From an uncultured virus (IMG/VR IMGVR_UViG_3300008266_000011) (Duplodnaviria; Heunggongvirae; Uroviricota; Caudoviricetes), in IMG/VR virus record IMGVR_UViG_3300008266_000011: a DNA stretch of 35,204 bases, one strand, 5' to 3'. Position 1 is the stretch's first letter, and each line of letters opens with the position of its first letter. The notes under the pieces were generated by a model, which made no database searches, had not been told where the DNA came from, and worked only from the letters and a program-made list of their open reading frames with translations. Below are positions 1 through 8,775 of this stretch, piece after piece. The translations under genes were made by a program, and so were the position numbers.

Positions 1-1119
1 AGACTCTAGGGACTGTTCAGCGCATGGGTTATAACCTACCGCTCTCCAATCCTTGTTGTTCTCTGGGTCTGCAAGGCGACCATACTTACGAGTAACATCC
101 ATCCAGATAACTCCAGGCTCACCATTACGGGCAATGCCATCAATGATTGGGCTTAGGTCTTGACCTACAGATACCTCAACAGAGTTGTTTGACATCCAGC
201 CATGAGCCATACGCTCTGGGTGCTTCTCGTAGTTCTTTAGATTTAGAAAGTCTTCATCATCTAGTCTGCCCATCAATAACTCAGCAGAGCGACGAACATT
301 TCCAGATACAACGCAAACACCAATCATGTTGCCGATGTCAGCAATATCTCTACGGGTTAGTTTCTGTCCTGCACGACCACTAAACATTCCACTAATTAAG
401 TTATGTAACTTAATTAGTGGGTCTGGTCCTGCTGCTGTTCCTCCAAACGTTTTGATTGGTTCGCCTGCTGGACGGATTGCTTCATAATTAAATACTGGAT
501 TCTTCGAATCTGGTCGTAGGTAGGCATTGATGAGGGTGGCTGTCGATTCGACCCAGCCCTCTCTGGTATCTGGGATGTCATAAGGTTGTTCTCCTTGTGG
601 TTCATAGATATTGAACTCTTTGTCTGCGCCCTTATCGTCAAAGCCAACTCCAACACCAAGCATTGATGCCTCCATTAAGAAAGCAAATGGCTTTGCTGGG
701 TCGGTCTTTGTCATAGAGCCAGTTGATACAAATGCACAATTTTGTAGGGCTGCTGAATTTCGTTGGACATTTACTAGCGGTGTGCCCATGACCCACAGAC
801 CACGTCCAGGTGGAGTCCACTTCAAGTTGAATAGTCTGTCAAAGGCCTCCTTTGCCGAGGCTGCTGCTTTGGCATCAGACCATGGAAGTCTCTGACTTTT
901 AGCATGGTCCTTCTGCAACGAATACATGCCATTGATTACGCGTTCGCATACATCTGTCCATGTCTCTTTACGACCATTCTCCTTTAGACGAGAATAGGTG
1001 CGCAAGAAAGTTATCTCCCCTACCGAATTGCCACCAGCATCTTGATAACCAAATGGAGCCTTTTTGTCCTTGTACTGACCAACAAAGTCTTCAGCCAACT
1101 TAAAAGAAAAGTAATTCAT
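1..1119 (-). CDS. nrdJ: Class II (adenosylcobalamin-dependent, RTPR-type) ribonucleotide reductase, 5' part, truncated by the window edge
   Basis: Translated by hand from ATG at 1119 (SD GGTAGGGG), open through the part translated (to about 181): MNYFSFKL...FLRTYSR...ETWTDVCERVING...KWTPPGRGLW...ALQNCAF...LGVGVGFD...IPDTREGWVES...IRPAGEPIKTFGGTAAGP...CVVSGNVRRSAE...WMSNNS. These are typical RTPR motifs. Absent from the ORF track, presumably because its stop lies beyond the edge. Confidence 0.93.
   Translation of the reverse strand, partial: MNYFSFKLAEDFVGQYKDKKAPFGYQDAGGNSVGEITFLRTYSRLKENGRKETWTDVCERVINGMYSLQKDHAKSQRLPWSDAKAAASAKEAFDRLFNLKWTPPGRGLWVMGTPLVNVQRNSAALQNCAFVSTGSMTKTDPAKPFAFLMEASMLGVGVGFDDKGADKEFNIYEPQGEQPYDIPDTREGWVESTATLINAYLRPDSKNPVFNYEAIRPAGEPIKTFGGTAAGPDPLIKLHNLISGMFSGRAGQKLTRRDIADIGNMIGVCVVSGNVRRSAELLMGRLDDEDFLNLKNYEKHPERMAHGWMSNNSVEVSVGQDLSPIIDGIARNGEPGVIWMDVTRKYGRLADPENNKDWRAVGYNPCAEQSLES
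389..420. repeat. 32-bp palindrome (perfect 15-bp arms, 2-nt centre) inside nrdJ
   Basis: ccactaattaagtta-tg-taacttaattagtgg, read directly from the sequence. Confidence 0.9.
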
Positions 1120-1255
1120 TTCCCCTACCATTTCATCATATTGTCAAATACCCTCAAAAGGAAGGCTTATTGTGAAGGCACGAAACCTATCATGCACTTG
1201 TTAACTTCGTTTAATACTTTTGGCAATCTTTACAGGTTGAACCATGTTTCATAGC

Positions 1256-1275
1256 CTGATAACTTCTGTTATCAG
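1256..1275. repeat. Short inverted repeat just after the stop of the 500-aa gene; possible operator or hairpin
   Basis: ctgataac-ttct-gttatcag (8-bp arms); no U-tract follows on the minus strand. Confidence 0.5.
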
Positions 1276-1278
1276 ATA

Positions 1279-2781
1279 CTACTCTTCTATTGACTCAGAG
1301 ATAATCTTTGTAACTGTATCTTCTTTCAATGTCTCTGGTAACTCACGAAGCGCCTGTGCACGGTCACCAAAGATGGCTGAAAGCACTCCACCAGCACTCT
1401 GACGCTGGGCTGTAATCTGTATAAACTCTTTATTAGTTTCCATCTCTTTAACCTGATTGACCAATTTAAATAGACGGTCTATCTCCTGAGATACGTTAGG
1501 GTCTGCGTATCCACCGTTCATTTCTTCGGCAAATCGCATGAAGGCTACACGCTGACCTTGCATCTCAATTATGGCTGTGAGCAGGGCTTTTAGTTGTTCT
1601 TTGGTCTTAACTTCTACGGGAAGATTGAAGGCACAAGAGTTATTAGGCTTGAAAGCAGGACAGTTAGAAGCGACAAAGCAAGTATTGCACTGACGAATCG
1701 AACTACTCTGCGTTTGGACGACTGGTACATCTTTGAGGACATCTCTTCCATTCTCATCCGTTTCTACTACAGTCTTTATATTAAAGCCAAAGACAGGTAA
1801 GTTTTGCATCTCTTCAGGGTCTCTTTGAACCACTTCACTTCGCTCCACTTTCCTCCCTTCTACTCCACTGTTATCAGAAGGTACCCCCATCAATTCCATC
1901 AAACCCGACATAAGGGGCGTATCGCTATTATCAGATACTTCTTCAGTTTTGCCACCTTCGATAATATGTAAATCGGGCTTCTTCTTATCCATTGACTCTT
2001 CCAATCGTAGGTATGACCACACGGCAACCTTAGTGGCTTCAAGGGTACTATCGTTTACAAACTCTGAATAGTCTAGACCTGCTCCTTCAACAATCGCCTT
2101 GTATCGGAGTCTGGCTTGGTCCTTCATCTTCTTGGGATATCTAACTAACTTAGTGCCATCCCAGACGATTGTCTCGCCTCTTCTCATGGGCGAAAGCCAT
2201 GACAATGTGCTGGTTGTGGCAAATGGTATCTGCCTTAAGTTATCTGGCTTGGCACATCCAAGGGCGTGATATCGCGTCCCATACTGTCTTTCGTAGGCTC
2301 TGGTTATACCGGATAAGTTAGTTACTGATTCAATCTCATCATTGGGTATTGCAATGTTTTGGAATTGCTGTGATAGTTCTTTTAAGTTCAGTAGTCCATA
2401 CTCTTGATGCCAGATGACCCATAGTTTAGGGTCGTTACTAAAGAAGGGACGTTGTTGTTCTACCCATTCTTTGCCCAAAACTTGGGAATCAAACTCCTGG
2501 AAGGCTGCGGCTCTGTCGGCGTTATTTACTAAAAACTCCTGGTAGTCAGCGGCGAGGTCTAGTAACTCTTGCTTTGAAAGGCCTGCCTTGTCTGCTTGTG
2601 ATGCTCCTGACTCAATGTAAACCTTTGCATTATCTTGGAAATGTTCAGAAATAAGCCATATCTTTGTTTTAGGCAGTCCTCTTTTACGCAATCCCCAATA
2701 GTTGAGTCCCATCGACTCAACTTTCATTCCCTCTAAAAGGGTACGGTTACTCCCAACCTCTGTTCCTGAGAAGATAAGCAT
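1279..2781 (-). CDS. Degenerate tRNA-guanine transglycosylase/DpdA-like domain fused to a C-terminal Cys4 and helical domain
   Basis: Motif order YIESGA...EFD...VIWH...IAIP...YHALG...PFATTSTLSW parallels DSGAF...LD...PVWH...IAIG...HGFG...PFxSxDSxSW of DpdA-like proteins; C-terminal CNTC-x5-C-x8-C. Confidence 0.5.
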   Translation of the reverse strand: MLIFSGTEVGSNRTLLEGMKVESMGLNYWGLRKRGLPKTKIWLISEHFQDNAKVYIESGASQADKAGLSKQELLDLAADYQEFLVNNADRAAAFQEFDSQVLGKEWVEQQRPFFSNDPKLWVIWHQEYGLLNLKELSQQFQNIAIPNDEIESVTNLSGITRAYERQYGTRYHALGCAKPDNLRQIPFATTSTLSWLSPMRRGETIVWDGTKLVRYPKKMKDQARLRYKAIVEGAGLDYSEFVNDSTLEATKVAVWSYLRLEESMDKKKPDLHIIEGGKTEEVSDNSDTPLMSGLMELMGVPSDNSGVEGRKVERSEVVQRDPEEMQNLPVFGFNIKTVVETDENGRDVLKDVPVVQTQSSSIRQCNTCFVASNCPAFKPNNSCAFNLPVEVKTKEQLKALLTAIIEMQGQRVAFMRFAEEMNGGYADPNVSQEIDRLFKLVNQVKEMETNKEFIQITAQRQSAGGVLSAIFGDRAQALRELPETLKEDTVTKIISESIEE

Positions 2782-3266
2782 TACTCATCCCAAAGTTGTG
2801 CGTCTTTAGGCTGTGCTGCATATTTTGATTTAGCAATGTTAACTTTTGTAATGGCATTTTCTATGTCTGACCATTTACGAACTTTGCTTGGGGCATCAGG
2901 TCTGTGCTCTACTGGCAAGTAACTTGGGTTACTGACGAGTAACGTTGGGATACCTTGTTCCATTACCCAAGCGCACATAGATGGGTCTGAATCAACAAAC
3001 AGTTCTACAGGCGCCTTTTGACGACTTAAGGTGAACTGACGCTTCTTTAGGTCTTCTCCAGCAAGTTCAACCGACTTATCTAATAAATCGTCATAACCAA
3101 TAATGCCGTGAGAATTAAGCCAGTGCTTTGCATCGGCTAAATCGCCTTTTGTAATTAACGCAACACGATGAAGGTTATTTAATGCGTAGTAGACCAGCAC
3201 TCCTGCTCTGTTTGGTTCTCCAGATTCCGCCCTAAGTACCCCGTCTAGTGAAAGAATTATATTCAA
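2781..3266 (-). CDS. HAD-superfamily phosphatase-like protein with degenerate motif I
   Basis: N-terminal IILSLDGVL (DxDG with the first Asp replaced by Ser), ALIT (motif II), LFVDSD (motif IV); TTG start with SD AAGGGAG. Confidence 0.6.
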   Translation of the reverse strand: MNIILSLDGVLRAESGEPNRAGVLVYYALNNLHRVALITKGDLADAKHWLNSHGIIGYDDLLDKSVELAGEDLKKRQFTLSRQKAPVELFVDSDPSMCAWVMEQGIPTLLVSNPSYLPVEHRPDAPSKVRKWSDIENAITKVNIAKSKYAAQPKDAQLWDE

Positions 3267-3267
3267 A

Positions 3268-4197
3268 TTACTCCCTTACTCTATATGTTGCTGCTCTACG
3301 AATAAGTGTTTGTGTATCAGGTAACTCTACACCGTAAGTTTCCAAAGCCTGCTGACCTTCGTAGTCTTTTAAATAGTCATGCATTTTGCGAAGAGCAGGG
3401 ATAGTTCCATACTTTTTACCAGCCTGCCAGCGATAGTTATGGAAGTCATCATATCCTTTACCAAATTCTGTAAAGGCAAGTTTACGTGAGCGATGAATGT
3501 CATCAAATAACATTGCGCCATGTTGTAGCGCTTGTTGTAGTTTGAACTCTGCATTGCGACGTGCTGCATCATTAGGAGCAGATTGCATTTCTGTCATGGC
3601 TTTAGAATACCTAGACACAATGTTTATAGCCATTGTGCGGTCACTCTGAGCAGCCTTTTCCCATGCAGCATTCTGTGGCGCAGAAGTTCTGCGTGGGAAT
3701 ACTGTCCACTCGTTGTACTTTAAATCATATGCAGCATAAGGATTAATAGTTCGGATATCTGTAGCACCAGGATTTACATAGAAGGTAACTTCAAAGCCAT
3801 GCCAGTTAGTTGTATCTGGTTGTAGATACTCACGAAAATCTTCATTGAGCATTTTGCTAATTTCTGTATCAGACAGCCCTATGTATTCAGGATGTGCTTT
3901 TCTAAACTGTACATAATCAACACCAATCAAGACATCCAAATCACCTGGGTCACGATGTGCTGCCCATTGGAAGGAAACTGCAGAGCCTGCAATCCATGCA
4001 TGAGCCCAAAGGTCTGGGTGTCGGTATTGCTCATTCAAGAATCCGAATAGAAGTTGCAGAATGCCGTTACGCACCCAGCCCTTGAGAACTGTGCCAGTAA
4101 ATAACTGCGGGTCTAAGGTCTCTTCTGGCTCAGAAAAGTAGGACGTAGAGCCACGTCGAATTTCGACAGGCTCATCTAGACCAAACTGGCGTTCCAT
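3268..4197 (-). CDS. Pol-beta superfamily nucleotidyltransferase (phage type)
   Basis: hG[GS] motif followed by DLD (IAGSAVSFQW...GDLDVLI), then GFEVTFYV and YDLKYNEW, then a helical C-terminus. Confidence 0.75.
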   Translation of the reverse strand: MERQFGLDEPVEIRRGSTSYFSEPEETLDPQLFTGTVLKGWVRNGILQLLFGFLNEQYRHPDLWAHAWIAGSAVSFQWAAHRDPGDLDVLIGVDYVQFRKAHPEYIGLSDTEISKMLNEDFREYLQPDTTNWHGFEVTFYVNPGATDIRTINPYAAYDLKYNEWTVFPRRTSAPQNAAWEKAAQSDRTMAINIVSRYSKAMTEMQSAPNDAARRNAEFKLQQALQHGAMLFDDIHRSRKLAFTEFGKGYDDFHNYRWQAGKKYGTIPALRKMHDYLKDYEGQQALETYGVELPDTQTLIRRAATYRVRE

Positions 4198-4209
4198 GTG
4201 CCTAGTCTA
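4198..4209 (-). promoter_or_regulatory. Putative leaderless promoter -10 (TAGACT) for the NTase unit
   Basis: Minus strand reads TAGACT-AGGCAC-ATG: TANNNT, 6 nt, start codon, no clear SD. Confidence 0.55.
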
Positions 4210-4216
4210 TGTCTAT

Positions 4217-4567
4217 TTATGCGCCTGGTGTCTCTATGCCTCTATCACTAAGAGCGGACATCAATCTTTCTCGTAATTCTTTAGCGCTATCTGCAGGTTG
4301 CAGAGATGACACAACAGCCCGTGCTACGCGGTCTGCCAACAACTGAGACTCAATATCACTGACCAGGTCTTTGCAAGTAGAGTAAATATCAAAGGTATTG
4401 GCCCGTCTAGAAACCTTATCTGATGGCTCTGATACCTGCGTGTGTATAGCGCCGTCTCTATCTACTATTACCGTGTAGGAGTACTGAATAGTTGGTTCAG
4501 GTCTTCCAAGGTCTTCCCAAGCCTTTTCTTTCTCTATGGGCTCAGTTACACTCTTTATATCTTCCAT
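4217..4567 (-). CDS. Hypothetical protein
   Basis: 116-aa ORF abutting the upstream gene (TAAATG) with an SD-like GGGG. Confidence 0.75.
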   Translation of the reverse strand: MEDIKSVTEPIEKEKAWEDLGRPEPTIQYSYTVIVDRDGAIHTQVSEPSDKVSRRANTFDIYSTCKDLVSDIESQLLADRVARAVVSSLQPADSAKELRERLMSALSDRGIETPGA

Positions 4568-5116
4568 TTATAACCCCATCAATTTCTGTTTACGTTCGGC
4601 TACCTTTATCGCTACAGGGCAAAAATCACATAAGTATGTCTTTACTCCTGGAGTGCTTTCATAACTATCTAGTCCTTCTTTACGGCGCTCTTTTATTGTG
4701 TTTGGAATAAGCATCTTGTCAGAGACATGCCAGTCAACACAGCCATCTTTAGGACTATTATGTGCTTTGTAGCACTTCATTGCATCTTCCATAAATGTAG
4801 AGCGAGTCTCGTAAAACTTATCGTCTATTTCAGCAAGACCTTTTGAACCGCCTTGTCTGATTTGACGAATAGCGTCTCTGCGAGTTTCTGGGTCACGCCA
4901 TGCATCTACTGGAATGTCAACAAATAGGTTACCTCTGTGCGGTTCACCGGAATCAAATACGTGTTTTTCGCAGGCAACTTCAAGTAGATAATCTTGTTCT
5001 GCAGGGCCTTCAAATGGCGGTAACTCTTCTAGAGTGTCGCAGACCCAACAGTGTAATAAACGGAAGGTCTTCTTCTTTTCAACAGGTTTAGAACCCAGAA
5101 TGGGTACATTACTCAT
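4568..5116 (-). CDS. Hypothetical Cys/His-rich (probably zinc-binding) protein
   Basis: CWVC, CEKH, CYKAH...C and CDFCP motifs; SD AAGGAG. Confidence 0.75.
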   Translation of the reverse strand: MSNVPILGSKPVEKKKTFRLLHCWVCDTLEELPPFEGPAEQDYLLEVACEKHVFDSGEPHRGNLFVDIPVDAWRDPETRRDAIRQIRQGGSKGLAEIDDKFYETRSTFMEDAMKCYKAHNSPKDGCVDWHVSDKMLIPNTIKERRKEGLDSYESTPGVKTYLCDFCPVAIKVAERKQKLMGL

Positions 5117-5916: not shown

Positions 5917-6135
5917 TTAAAGGTAGTTCCTTCCCTTTGACCGTCTCTTTTTATTACGTGGAGCAAATGCCATATCTTTTATACGGTCAGAATGTAACTT
6001 AGTTGCTTTTTCTGTTGAATCAGTATCGTAATAAGCGCCACCAGAATCATTACGGTCATTAGTTGCTTCAACATGAACGCCTTTATCAGTTTTTCTGGCA
6101 ACAAACTTGCGACGGTCATTAAACTCAATAGCCAT
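5917..6135 (-). CDS. Small basic protein with N-terminal FNDRR motif
   Basis: MAIEFNDRRK...; SD GAGGT; TAGTCATG junction. Confidence 0.75.
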   Translation of the reverse strand: MAIEFNDRRKFVARKTDKGVHVEATNDRNDSGGAYYDTDSTEKATKLHSDRIKDMAFAPRNKKRRSKGRNYL

Positions 6136-6137
6136 GA

Positions 6138-6329
6138 CTACTTAACCTCGGTAACTTTAGTAGAGCGAGGATGCCATCCTTCATTTTGTGCTCTTCCTAA
6201 ATCTTGCTCGCAATAAACAGTTCCTCCATAACGATAAAGAGTGGTCTCATGTTTTTTTGCTGAACAAACTTCGCAAGCAGTTTCACCTTTTTTAACAGCA
6301 GTACTACGTCTTCTGTCATTAAATTGCAT
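6138..6329 (-). CDS. Small protein with N-terminal FNDRR motif and CxxC...C
   Basis: MQFNDRRR...CEVC...YCEQD; TAATCATG junction. Confidence 0.75.
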   Translation of the reverse strand: MQFNDRRRSTAVKKGETACEVCSAKKHETTLYRYGGTVYCEQDLGRAQNEGWHPRSTKVTEVK

Positions 6330-6536: not shown

Positions 6537-6749
6537 TTAGTAACCTTTCTTCATTTCAGAATCGATTGCAGCACGGTTCTCTTTTACGGTCTTTTTATTG
6601 CTCGAACCTGTGCCCATCATCATTCCACCAATTTTTTTACTTAATGCTGAAGGTTCTTTCTTTGGCTTTTGGGTAGCCTTAATTGAGCCAGCCTTTGCTG
6701 CTGCTGCAACTGCAGGATTCTTGATAGTGCGACGGTCATTAAAATACAT
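6537..6749 (-). CDS. Small basic protein with N-terminal FNDRR motif
   Basis: MYFNDRRT...; Lys-rich; TAATG coupling, SD AAGGAG. Confidence 0.75.
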   Translation of the reverse strand: MYFNDRRTIKNPAVAAAAKAGSIKATQKPKKEPSALSKKIGGMMMGTGSSNKKTVKENRAAIDSEMKKGY

Positions 6750-6952: not shown

Positions 6953-7233
6953 TAGTAAATCCCATCTCCATAGGTATCTAGCCCTTGCTTTTTTGCGGGT
7001 TCACTTGGTTGTGGAAAAGATGATAATCCAGAAGATGCGCTTCCTGAACTACCTGAACCAGAAAACGCAGACATAAGTAATGCTCCACGTCCAAGTTTGC
7101 CAACTTTTCCAACTTTACTAACTTTGTTCAACATTGATGCACCACGAGCAAATTGAGAAGCGCTAACAGCGGCTCCACCACGAGTTGCTGCGGCTCTTGC
7201 AACTGCTCCAATAATAGGTCCGATAATTGGCAT
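6952..7233 (-). CDS. Small Gly/Ala/Ser-rich hypothetical protein
   Basis: Hydrophobic N-terminus MPIIGPIIGAVARAAA; TAATG coupling on both sides. Confidence 0.7.
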   Translation of the reverse strand: MPIIGPIIGAVARAAATRGGAAVSASQFARGASMLNKVSKVGKVGKLGRGALLMSAFSGSGSSGSASSGLSSFPQPSEPAKKQGLDTYGDGIY

Positions 7234-7592
7234 TATTCACTTCCTAACGTGTTTCTAGATGCACCAGTGTAGCCTGCTGGACTTCCTGAGTACCAGGAAA
7301 TGCGTGGTTCTACATAGTTTCTATCTACGGTTATAACATCATCTATGCCTACAGCACGACGGTCATAGCCATACCGCTCTGGAAACAAACGAATCTGTGG
7401 CAAGGGTGGACGAACCATCTGTGAGATTTCTTCAGCAGGAATATTCATTATCATTAATGCTTGAGATGTTAGCCGTTCCATGTTGGATGACCATGGACCG
7501 TTATATTGCCAACGCTTTGCTACCTGGTCGGGTTGAACAGGTGCACGCCATGGCTTGGTGTAATCATAAACTCCGTCATACTTCTGGGTCAT
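7233..7592 (-). CDS. Hypothetical protein
   Basis: Start moved to ATG 7592 (MTQKYDG), which gives an ATGA overlap with the upstream stop and SD GAGG. Confidence 0.75.
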   Translation of the reverse strand: MTQKYDGVYDYTKPWRAPVQPDQVAKRWQYNGPWSSNMERLTSQALMIMNIPAEEISQMVRPPLPQIRLFPERYGYDRRAVGIDDVITVDRNYVEPRISWYSGSPAGYTGASRNTLGSE

Positions 7593-8242
7593 AATGCACC
7601 TCGATGTGCAACCCAAGATACTGCTTGCGCTTTATTAGGAACTTCAACTTCTAAGTTTTGAGCAGCAGCATGATAAGCATGAACAAAGTGGTCGTATCTA
7701 TTTTTTGCAGATAAACCAATGTCCGGAGACATCTTGCCACCTCCACCACGTGGTGTTGACTTACGACCAGTTCCTACAAAAGGATTTCCCATTGCAATAT
7801 CATAAGCATGACGGTCAATAGTTACAGGTTGAGGATTACTTGGGTCATGGATATTTTCAAAAAAACTACGAACTTTATGTCCACCCAATACTTCGTGTGG
7901 GTCTTCTCCAGAATGAATTCTTTGTGCTTTTTCAACATTTGCTCTTATCAAACTGCTAGGAGAGTCTCCTGTTTTTGCCAACTGATGTGCGTACGCAACA
8001 TTCTTATCCCAGTCAGTTAACGGAGATAATGCAGCGATAATTCCTGCACCTCTTCTAACGTCTCCTCCACCAACTTTTTTGGCTTCATCGTGAGCACGCT
8101 CATACCATTCAGAACCGCCTTTTAATAACTTAGGCGTTGCTTCTCTGTATTTGTTAACAATGTTCTTTACGTGCAAGTCAAACTGTTGTTGCGCTAAATT
8201 TTTATCAAAACGACCATGTTCGTTAACACCAAAGTAAGCCAT
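7589..8242 (-). CDS. HhH DNA-glycosylase-like phage protein
   Basis: WY...IIAALSP...W..N...GHKVRSF..NI...VTIDRHA...QAVSW; the Lys and the IDxH motif resemble EndoIII-family catalytic elements; start moved to ATG 8242 (TAATG coupling). Confidence 0.55.
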   Translation of the reverse strand: MAYFGVNEHGRFDKNLAQQQFDLHVKNIVNKYREATPKLLKGGSEWYERAHDEAKKVGGGDVRRGAGIIAALSPLTDWDKNVAYAHQLAKTGDSPSSLIRANVEKAQRIHSGEDPHEVLGGHKVRSFFENIHDPSNPQPVTIDRHAYDIAMGNPFVGTGRKSTPRGGGGKMSPDIGLSAKNRYDHFVHAYHAAAQNLEVEVPNKAQAVSWVAHRGAL

Positions 8243-8775
8243 TATCGCCACGCAGGTTTCAAATAAGCAAGCATATTCTGACGACGAACATCAATCTGAC
8301 CTGGAGCATCAGATACAAGGTTGGATTTACCATCATTGACAAGGTGTGGTGCAGGAGTTAACTGTGTTTGTGGAGCAAATCTTGGTGAACGATAAACTGT
8401 TGCTCCAGAACTTGAGTCTACTTGTGCACGCATTTGTCGTATTAAACCCATATCTGGTGTGAACTCTTGAGGCCAAAAGTACATTGATGGCTCAATACGC
8501 TCACCCTTATGTACACCACGTTGATATGCTTTTTGATTAACGCGAGATTTAACAGAGTCAAGAAGCCTGTCATCACGACGAGAACGAATTGTTCCTAGAT
8601 AACCATCTGGATACTCTGCAGAAGGTACACGACCAACACCAATACGCGTTGCATCTAGAGTGTCACGAGCAACTGGAGTTCCTGCGCCACCCTGATTGTT
8701 ATAGCCGTAGAATCCACCAGCGCCTAATGATTGCCAGTTCTGAGATGCTGAGAAGTTATTTGAGCCAGTTGGCAT
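8242..8775 (-). CDS. Hypothetical protein
   Basis: 177 aa, PSAEYPDGYLGTI...RGVHKGERI; TGATG coupling, SD GAGGGG. Confidence 0.8.
   Translation of the reverse strand: MPTGSNNFSASQNWQSLGAGGFYGYNNQGGAGTPVARDTLDATRIGVGRVPSAEYPDGYLGTIRSRRDDRLLDSVKSRVNQKAYQRGVHKGERIEPSMYFWPQEFTPDMGLIRQMRAQVDSSSGATVYRSPRFAPQTQLTPAPHLVNDGKSNLVSDAPGQIDVRRQNMLAYLKPAWR

Follow-up and report, generated by a model that had tools for sequence, protein, structure and literature searches.

The question raised by the DNA stretch IMGVR_UViG_3300008266_000011, a sequence of 35,204 nucleotides from a tailed lake-water phage of actinobacteria (hereafter the window), is what becomes of a phage DNA base-swapping enzyme whose nucleophile is gone and whose gene stands in a row with that of a nucleotidyltransferase (NTase). 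Three genes are concerned, all on the minus strand, as is the coding of the whole window: NT309 (3268..4197), encoding the 309-residue NTase, HAD161 (2781..3266), encoding a HAD-like protein of 161 amino acids with a TTG start, and TGT500 (1279..2781), encoding a 500-residue protein of the TGT/DpdA type. An earlier note on this DNA had proposed that the three form a nucleic-acid modification, tRNA-repair or nucleotide-signalling module with one active enzyme. Here, we show that TGT500 descends from a long-form phage DpdA of the type of BCD7 gp21 and, by comparison of aligned residues, that its nucleophile is lost and the position unconserved, while the base pocket is mostly kept. The unit is not a 7-deazaguanine inserter. 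Tentatively, we favour the reading that a DpdA-like scaffold recognises DNA bases and that the NTase acts on nucleic acid.

The assignment of TGT500 to the DpdA lineage is based on both its predicted fold and profile comparisons. The AlphaFold2 (AF2) model (pLDDT 83.1) consists of a barrel, a disordered linker and a C-terminal domain. Residues 1-267 form eight strand-helix units with pLDDT above 94, residues 272-312 fall below 50, and the C-terminal domain is modelled as two hairpins, the cysteine cluster and long helices. On the minus strand, the DpdA/TGT-type TIM barrel (residues 1-272) is encoded at 1966..2781, the acidic linker of low model confidence (residues 273-319) at 1825..1965, and residues 320-500 with the stop codon at 1279..1824, where the Cys4 cluster (nt 1633-1689) is followed by the long helices. 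In a Foldseek search the top match was bacterial TGT (E 8e-6), and the Cap10-CdnD complex 9ntn_B ranked fifth (E 1.6e-5). VIA aligned the model with ArcTGT 1j2b_A (Z 17.5, rmsd 3.5, 256 aligned), bacterial TGT (Z 17.2), DpdA 7ui4 (Z 16.8, rmsd 3.5, 256 aligned) and 9ntn_A (Z 16.6), and these matches at Z 16.6-17.5 are all tied. The profile of the barrel, aligned by hhalign to seven phage DpdA proteins (from phage 9g and from Stenotrophomonas, Synechococcus, Mycobacterium, Arthrobacter, Rhodococcus and Vibrio phages), gave 99.6% and E 9.9e-23 over 259 columns, the entire 9g protein; thus, TGT500 is homologous to DpdA and shares more with it than a fold. To BCD7 gp21 the values were 99.8% and E 6.4e-30, and the C-terminal domain likewise matches BCD7 gp21 and BS162P1 gp88 in tblastn and blastp searches (blastp to BCD7 gp21, 1e-15). 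With this domain alone as query, tblastn returned only the same phages and one faecal contig. The earlier description of the protein as a TGT/DpdA-like-Cys4 fusion is therefore upheld by the barrel at Z 16.6-17.5 and by the hhalign match to DpdA, and the absence of a TIM-barrel or TGT fold, which was to have spoken against the proposed module, was not observed.

In PHROGs TGT500 matches phrog_887, 'queuine tRNA-ribosyltransferase' (1.9e-59). The Pfam TGT family PF01702 matched neither TGT500 nor the family members scanned. NT309, HAD161 and TGT500 were all without a match in Pfam, NCBIfam and PADLOC, as they were when PDB sequences were searched with phmmer and with a profile. Aligned by hhalign to E. 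coli Tgt alone, the family pairs at the DSG motif only, with 0.45% probability. No aGPT-Pplase family of Pfam (thymidine hypermodification transferases) was matched by the window protein at E <= 1 or by 23 members at E <= 0.01. An exhaustive search placed 853 clusters at 50% identity in the TGT500 family (E <= 0.001), 221 of them with E <= 1e-30. Among public phage records, full-length matches to TGT500 and NT309 occur only in BRock-group Streptomyces phages, at 33-38% identity.

The residues by which a DpdA works can be followed through this family. In Z. mobilis TGT the nucleophile is D280. In S. Montevideo DpdA, according to the passages of the published study that deal with these residues, Asp95 serves as acid/base, Asp130 and His181 read the base and Asp256 is the nucleophile, and alanine at Asp95 or at the nucleophile kills the exchange (PMC10164549). 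In TGT500 the corresponding pocket and motif residues are Glu8, Glu57 at the DSG position, Glu96-Phe-Asp98, His172, Ser191 and Trp195. By hhalign pairing, the DpdA motif DSGAF corresponds to LDSG in the family and to Glu57-Ser-Gly in the window, the second Asp of DpdA to E-F-D and Asp98, and its His to H-G/A and His172. The motif SvDSSsW pairs with svsStSW, so that Ser191 lies under the nucleophile Asp. Columns were counted in an alignment of the window protein with 82 of 150 listed proteins (83 sequences), from which fragments, two-stretch matches, four proteins that carry inteins and two that have an HNH head had been left out. The nucleophile column reads S38 A15 T11 G11 Y3 M1 D1 and is other than Asp in 82 of the 83. 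At the DSG position the count is D56 E9 Y6 H5 N3 T1 A1, the columns of Asp98 and His172 hold Asp in 69 and His in 72 sequences, Glu8 is Glu in 79 and Asp in 4, Glu96 is kept in 74, and Trp195 is present in all 83. Similarly, none of 13 module proteins (the window and 12 further loci) has the nucleophile Asp, the residue being S, A, T or G, as opposed to both long-form DpdA proteins compared. The earlier claim that catalytic Asp residues were lost was thus correct for the nucleophile (Ser191), half right for the DSG Asp (Glu57) and wrong for Asp98, which is kept. A single member of the 83, P0261, bears the Asp (RFTTADSGSW) together with all pocket residues; a locus search in IMG/VR did not find its own contig.

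A protein so clearly homologous to DpdA, with base-pocket residues largely kept, might still be an ordinary DpdA which inserts a host-made 7-deazaguanine or another base, its nucleophile being another residue, such as Glu8, or one supplied by a partner. Database labels point the same way (BRock gp36 is named queuine tRNA-ribosyltransferase, GiJojo gp181 dpdA-like), and phages with dpdA alone and a host source of preQ0 have been described (relevant passages of Hutinet 2019, PMC6884629). We nevertheless regard this explanation as very improbable. Asp stands at the nucleophile position in only 1 of the 83 proteins, the position varying among S, A, T and G, whereas in S. Montevideo DpdA, in the passages that report the mutants, alanine at either catalytic Asp abolishes exchange (PMC10164549). 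The supply of the base is also poorly represented, with Pfam TGT in none of five host genomes and full-length QueC in one of five. Glu8 was considered as a migrated, clade-specific nucleophile and rejected, because BCD7 gp21, with its Asp in place, has Glu8 as well, so that Glu8 did not arise as a substitute for the Asp.

The phage genomes themselves agree with this. The earlier note had remarked that folE, queC, queD and queE are missing here, and indeed no que or folE gene was found among the window proteins scanned, nor in a complete relative. QueC, FolE and QueD were absent from all four phage records searched, i.e. the nearest fragment, the 100%-complete 96-kb relative, BRock and GiJojo. 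By comparison, BCD7 gp21 (757 aa, phrog_887) adjoins genes for GTP cyclohydrolase (FolE), QueC, QueE and QueD and keeps the nucleophile Asp (TGDSTTW), as does BS162P1 gp87. Near BCD7 gp21 and near the split DpdA of BS162P1, no relatives of NT309 or HAD161 were found (hhalign probabilities <= 1.8%), and none of g182, a further protein of the unit described below. It therefore appears, as far as these loci go, that the Asp accompanies preQ0 genes and that its absence accompanies the HAD-like protein, g182 and usually the NTase. In three actinophages (L161, L162 and L163, of Mycobacterium, Arthrobacter and Rhodococcus) the gene of an ordinary DpdA was observed directly after a gene with a ParB-like nuclease domain, and in two of the three a QueC-like gene comes next. 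This arrangement matches the bacterial DpdA-DpdB pairing.

The unit as such is well defined. In the window the three genes are tightly coupled, as had been noted: a single base separates the GAG TAA that ends NT309 from the TTG start of HAD161, whose ribosome site is the AGGGAG immediately before it, and the TAATG at the end of HAD161 contains the ATG of TGT500. The cut nrdJ gene (1131..1) follows TGT500, in line with the earlier placement of the unit upstream of nrdJ. Across 80 IMG/VR loci, HAD161 stands directly ahead of TGT500 in 72 (the eight misses being matches at contig ends) and NT309 is next in the order NT-HAD-TGT in 67, all 13 misses again lying at contig ends. An nrdJ gene is downstream in 74, with two misses at contig ends and four true absences. 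Thus, the genes proved not to be unlinked in relatives, the outcome that was to have spoken against the proposed module. A profile search extended the comparison to 15 diverse flanked loci, namely BRock, GiJojo, two distant lake phages, four further IMG/VR clades and six actinobacterial genomes; searches with P0297 and P0332 as queries for distant-clade loci gave none. The HAD-like gene is present in 15 of these loci, a g182 gene in 14 and the NTase gene in 13, in the same order; the NTase is missing beside the core in L165 (Terracoccus) and L173. In BRock the order is as in the window, with gp39 (NT), gp38 (HAD-like; E 3e-20 to HAD161), the low-complexity gp37 and gp36 (TGT-like), and BRock gp42 is a relative of g182 (32% identical). 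The set occurs in lake phages, in BRock-like Streptomyces phages and in Streptomyces prophages. In five Streptomyces genomes it is flanked by LysM/PG-binding lysis genes on one side and by a large serine recombinase on the other, which to judge from these neighbours is a prophage end and a moron-like place. Some relatives carry an insert of 0.4-0.8 kb with an extra small ORF between the NTase and HAD-like genes (L154:2417-2854 in the complete relative G002, L006, L008, L012, L023), where the window has 1 nt.

The unit also seems to carry a promoter of its own. A -10-like hexamer, TAGACT (4204..4209, minus strand), stands 6 nt ahead of the NT309 ATG and had been put forward as a candidate leaderless promoter; leaderless transcripts are common in actinobacteria. 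We compared the 60 nt ahead of NT309 orthologues in IMG/VR relatives, accepting only loci in which the orthologue was full-length and its flank reached 60 nt or more, and counting identical sequences once, which gave 65 distinct sequences; BRock and GiJojo were kept separate. A TANNNT hexamer ends exactly 6 nt before the start in 61 of the 65 and 7 nt before it in three more, and at any other offset from 0 to 29 it occurs in at most 5. The variants were TAAACT (30), TAGACT (23), TAGAAT (4), TAAAAT (2) and TATACT (2), and in BRock and GiJojo, respectively, TAAACT precedes the ATG by 6 nt and TAGACT the start by 7 nt. A Shine-Dalgarno or GGAG-like word was found in none of the 65 upstream sequences, nor before NT309 in the window. 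A scan for the sigma-70 consensus, which found fewer promoter-like sites than in shuffled sequences, did not list TAGACT, because it requires a -35. The spacing is that of a leaderless transcript and goes beyond chance, a conclusion well supported by the comparison of these upstream regions. Thus, linkage and spacing together support the view that the three genes are a real unit with its own conserved leaderless-type promoter, and, judged by co-occurrence, the unit is larger than three genes and includes the upstream g182.

Within this unit NT309 is the protein with an apparently intact catalytic centre. Its AF2 model (pLDDT 89.1) has a small alpha/beta core, a candidate minimal NTase core at about residues 40-166, and a helical bundle that begins at residue 177 and reaches residue 308. 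Among 35 of 77 distinct orthologues listed, chosen across 48-100% identity, G71 S72, D86-L-D88 and E136 are invariant in all 35, and the earlier statement that the GS...DLD motif is kept can accordingly be extended to the relatives. TSYFSxP at residues 18-24 is also invariant and is peculiar to this family. No Foldseek row reached E <= 0.001 (all were at E 0.015 or worse), and the weak rows included CD-NTases, ANT(6), AAD(9), the CCA-adding enzyme and TUTases. VIA aligned the core (residues 28-161) with 1ylq (Z 6.6), 1no5 (Z 6.1) and 5yep (Z 5.4), and a wide VIA search was filled with helical bundles matching the C-terminal domain. Pfam NTase models did not match NT309, DUF6932 appeared weakly in 8 of the 35 relatives, and its neighbours in the Atlas were viral clusters, one with 12% PF01909. 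We therefore file NT309 as a putative nucleotidyltransferase of no described family, with the catalytic triad intact.

The intact NTase and the TGT fold side by side bring to mind a unit that acts on nucleotides, RNA or protein instead of DNA, the pocket of TGT500 holding a guanine nucleotide or ligand made or used by the NTase, be it in signalling or pool remodelling beside nrdJ or in a pairing like that of CdnD and Cap10. Cap10 of type IV CBASS (PDB 9NTN) is described, in the passages of the Cap10 preprint devoted to it, as a TGT-fold protein bound to the nucleotidyltransferase CdnD. Cap10-CdnD is among the best structural matches of TGT500 (9ntn_B, Foldseek E 1.6e-5; 9ntn_A, VIA Z 16.6), the weak Foldseek rows of NT309 include the CD-NTases 6u7b, 6wt9 and 7ljo, and in lake phages the unit adjoins nrdJ. 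We consider this explanation unlikely. According to the same passages of the preprint, Cap10 keeps its nucleophile D248, and CBASS needs a QueC-like Cap9 and a CD-NTase with the N-terminus M(G/S)G(G/S)GG. The TGT500 family is without the nucleophile, no QueC-like Cap9 is present, and NT309 is without the glycine-rich motif and has an N-terminal stretch that is packed in the model (pLDDT 86-91). Probabilities in the CD-NTase rows are only 0.13-0.33, with TM values of about 0.2. Thus, of the features of a CD-NTase or type IV CBASS system, QueC and the nucleophile are missing, and PADLOC found no match. Nor is the linkage to nrdJ general, since it is absent in BRock phages and in the prophages.

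The HAD-like protein and g182 would fit the part of non-catalytic partners. HAD161 has the motif spacing of a capless HAD (hhhhDxDGVL, then T/S, then K/R, then an acidic pair), with SLDGVL as motif I and VDSDP as motif IV in the window. As the earlier note had recognised, the first Asp of DxD is lost here; among 34 relatives it is Asp in six only, position 6 reading E10 S9 D6 A4 T3 N2 and position 8 D24 E6 N4. Motif IV varies as well (VDSDP, ITNNP, VTAEP), and the invariant residues G22, W49, P114, P123 and W132 lie elsewhere. None of 32 members matched a Pfam HAD family, PHROGs gave one weak polynucleotide-kinase row in 34 and nothing clear, and NIF/HAD-type neighbours in the Atlas at 0.90 are a lead only. 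Fused forms of HAD161 were not found among longer proteins, which is weak evidence. By its motifs HAD161 is thus presumably a HAD-like protein without conserved catalytic aspartates. The upstream g182 (4568..5116, minus strand, 182 aa) is rich in Cys and His and travels with the unit: C23, H52, C115, C126, C163 and C166 are invariant and C26 and H60 nearly so among 28 sequences from three lineages, a pattern of candidate metal ligands. Between g182 and the unit lies g116 (4217..4567, minus strand), a small acidic protein found in most lake-phage loci (28-100% identity) and in neither BRock nor GiJojo.

With so many parts short of catalytic residues, the disabled DpdA, the HAD-like protein and g182 might together recognise or shield DNA without any enzymatic step, in anti-restriction, packaging or replication control, the NTase being independent of them. 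This is possible, if doubtful. The nucleophile is lost throughout the family, the catalytic positions of the HAD-like protein are unconserved, 2 of the 15 diverse loci have the core and no NTase, and the C-terminal domain is one which TGT500 has in common with real DNA-acting DpdA proteins; moreover, a noncatalytic TGT paralogue, QTRT2, is known (relevant passages of the Cap10 preprint). What such a proposal accounts for less well is that the NTase belongs to the same leaderless operon, with a 1-nt gap in the window, and is present in 13 of the 15 loci in the same order. Likewise, E8, E96 and D98 are kept in 79, 74 and 69 of the 83 proteins, seemingly beyond the needs of simple binding.

We therefore return to the tentative reading in which a DpdA-like scaffold recognises DNA bases and the NTase acts on nucleic acid. 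TGT500 would have retained DNA binding and would accommodate a purine in its pocket, unable to swap the base; it might thus serve as a targeting or base-presenting subunit, with HAD161 and g182 as non-catalytic partners. NT309, as the sole intact catalyst, would carry out its chemistry on the presented nucleic acid, for example a nucleotidylation, or on a partner, and the outcome would be an undescribed DNA mark or protection and not deazaguanylation. The linked unit, the intact NTase and the nucleophile-less TGT support the interpretation of the earlier note in part; its suggestions of tRNA repair and signalling are without specific support. Several observations speak against the reading that we favour. 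The NTase is absent in 2 of the 15 loci, so that the core can work without an NTase or with one whose gene lies elsewhere. Conservation of the pocket is loose: Asp of the DSG motif is kept in 56 of 83 proteins, and the subclade to which the window belongs has E, Y, H or N instead. In each of the five Streptomyces prophage forms residue 172 is Phe and the Cys4 stretch is gone. Finally, an altered catalytic route in TGT500 is possible. A complex prediction for TGT500 and HAD161 gave no answer (score 0.00, mark 0.32) and is evidence neither way.

In addition to the barrel, the C-terminal domain has strictly conserved residues. The cysteines of C365-x2-C368-x5-C374-x8-C383 are invariant in all 83 aligned proteins. 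Three of the VIA alignments extend to residues 371-372, and the cluster stands behind the disordered linker; it may or may not bind zinc or an iron-sulfur cluster or be equivalent to the TGT zinc site (CxCxxC...H). In the Streptomyces prophage forms (L166-L170, ~7001-8280), which are about 427 aa long, linker and Cys4 cluster are deleted and residue 172 is Phe, and their genes are still flanked by those for the HAD-like protein and the NTase. Inteins usually occupy conserved sites of proteins that a phage cannot lose. Four family members (P0271, P0335, P0339 and P0340) carry LAGLIDADG inteins at three conserved sites, two just before the equivalent of C368, one at that of C383 and one at that of Thr204 in G-x-T-I-V-W. 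This placement agrees with a working TGT500-family protein, and we conclude from the 853 clusters and the inteins at three conserved sites that the family is, by all appearances, under selection. Two further members, P0249 and P0257, have an HNH endonuclease head, perhaps a fused gene call.

The position of the Streptomyces units might suggest yet another role, in which the disabled DpdA reads 7-deazaguanine or other odd purines in the DNA of rival actinophages and the operon is an inter-phage or prophage weapon with the NTase as its effector. Many actinophages have DpdA beside QueC-like genes, and the prophage unit occupies a moron-like place between the lysis genes and the serine integrase. 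Both would fit such a weapon, which we nonetheless consider quite improbable.

The wider surroundings of the unit are those of a tailed phage. Downstream lies nrdJ (1..1131, minus strand), a class II ribonucleotide reductase gene identified by RNR_Alpha (5e-30) and phrog_367 and cut by the window edge. Genes for DNA polymerase A, DnaB, primase, a RecA-like recombinase and a Cas4-like exonuclease lie at 12-23 kb and baseplate genes at 29.7-33 kb. CTY words number 7-24 per 500 nt on the message strand of the window, with no bin at 6 or fewer, and a CTY desert is thus absent here. Directly past the TGT500 stop, a perfect 8-bp hairpin without a T-run, CTGATAAC-agaa-GTTATCAG, was seen at 1256-1275 (minus strand). 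It is absent from the list of the terminator scan, and TTGACA occurs farther on, ahead of nrdJ. Three adjacent ORFs a little upstream of the unit on the minus strand (5917-6135, 6138-6329 and 6537-6749) encode small basic proteins with a common N-terminal motif (MAIEFNDRRKF, MQFNDRRRST, MYFNDRRTIK), seemingly a small set of paralogues of unknown function. The complete relative G002 (96,345 bp, terminal repeats, 100% complete by CheckV) has two WhiB genes, which point to an actinobacterial host. It also has adjacent genes for an APS-kinase-like protein, a 4Fe-4S ferredoxin and a sulfotransferase (L153:1429-3172), by their annotation a possible phage sulfation module. At L153:6341-9657 an AAA_5 ATPase gene adjoins that of a VWA-domain protein in a MoxR/VWA-like pair, near which a T4 endoV-type pyrimidine-dimer glycosylase and a tyrosine integrase are encoded.

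These findings matter for the annotation of phage genomes, as the database labels (queuine tRNA-ribosyltransferase or DpdA) wrongly predict 7-deazaguanine DNA for the 853 clusters (50% identity) of actinophages. They also show the fate of a DNA base-swapping enzyme after the loss of its nucleophile, that is, maintenance under selection with fixed partners and an own leaderless promoter, and they point to an activity, so far undescribed, that abundant lake phages and Streptomyces phages direct at DNA or nucleotides. As phages of the BRock group are in culture, the question can be directly tested. A full-text literature search found no description of the module, with the limit that supplementary lists of DpdA phages may include BRock or BCD7. 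'Streptomyces' and 'BRock' are absent from the main text of Hutinet 2019 (PMC6884629), and the Dag enzymes of the glycosylase preprint are not described as TGT-fold proteins in its matching passages.

Among known systems, each resembles the unit in part. Minimal (MNT) and aminoglycoside NTases (1YLQ, 1NO5, 5YEP; ANT(6) 8VXB) resemble NT309 in the GS...DxD...E motif and, less clearly, in the core fold, and in the ANT enzymes, as in NT309, a helical domain follows the core. NT309 differs from them in its middling Z of 5.4-6.6, the lack of a match to any Pfam NTase model and its own TSYFSxP motif. To our knowledge, Cap10-CdnD is the only pairing of a TGT fold with a nucleotidyltransferase, and like the present unit it consists of a TGT-fold protein encoded with such an enzyme; it is, however, a bacterial defence system, whereas the unit is a phage operon without the nucleophile, without Cap9 and without the Gly-rich N-terminus (NT309 starts MERQFGLDE). 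QTRT2, the eukaryotic TGT paralogue, pairs with an active TGT on tRNA as a partner subunit. Like TGT500 it has the TGT fold without catalytic power, and the corresponding passages of the Cap10 preprint call it noncatalytic; the present phages and their hosts, however, encode no active TGT or DpdA. Phage 9g gp03 (DpdA1) and S. Montevideo DpdA (7UI4) share with TGT500 the TIM barrel and the pocket Asp and His, whereas TGT500 lacks the nucleophile Asp and a ParB-like DpdB neighbour and has an extra C-terminal domain and other partners. TGT500 differs from BCD7 gp21 in having Ser in place of the nucleophile Asp and no preQ0 genes, and gp21 in turn is without the partners of the module. Still, BCD7 gp21 and its split counterpart in BS162P1 (gp87 and gp88) combine, like TGT500, the DpdA barrel with the Cys4/helical C-terminal domain, and the G-x-E, DSG, E-x-D, His and S/T-W motifs are common to all of them.

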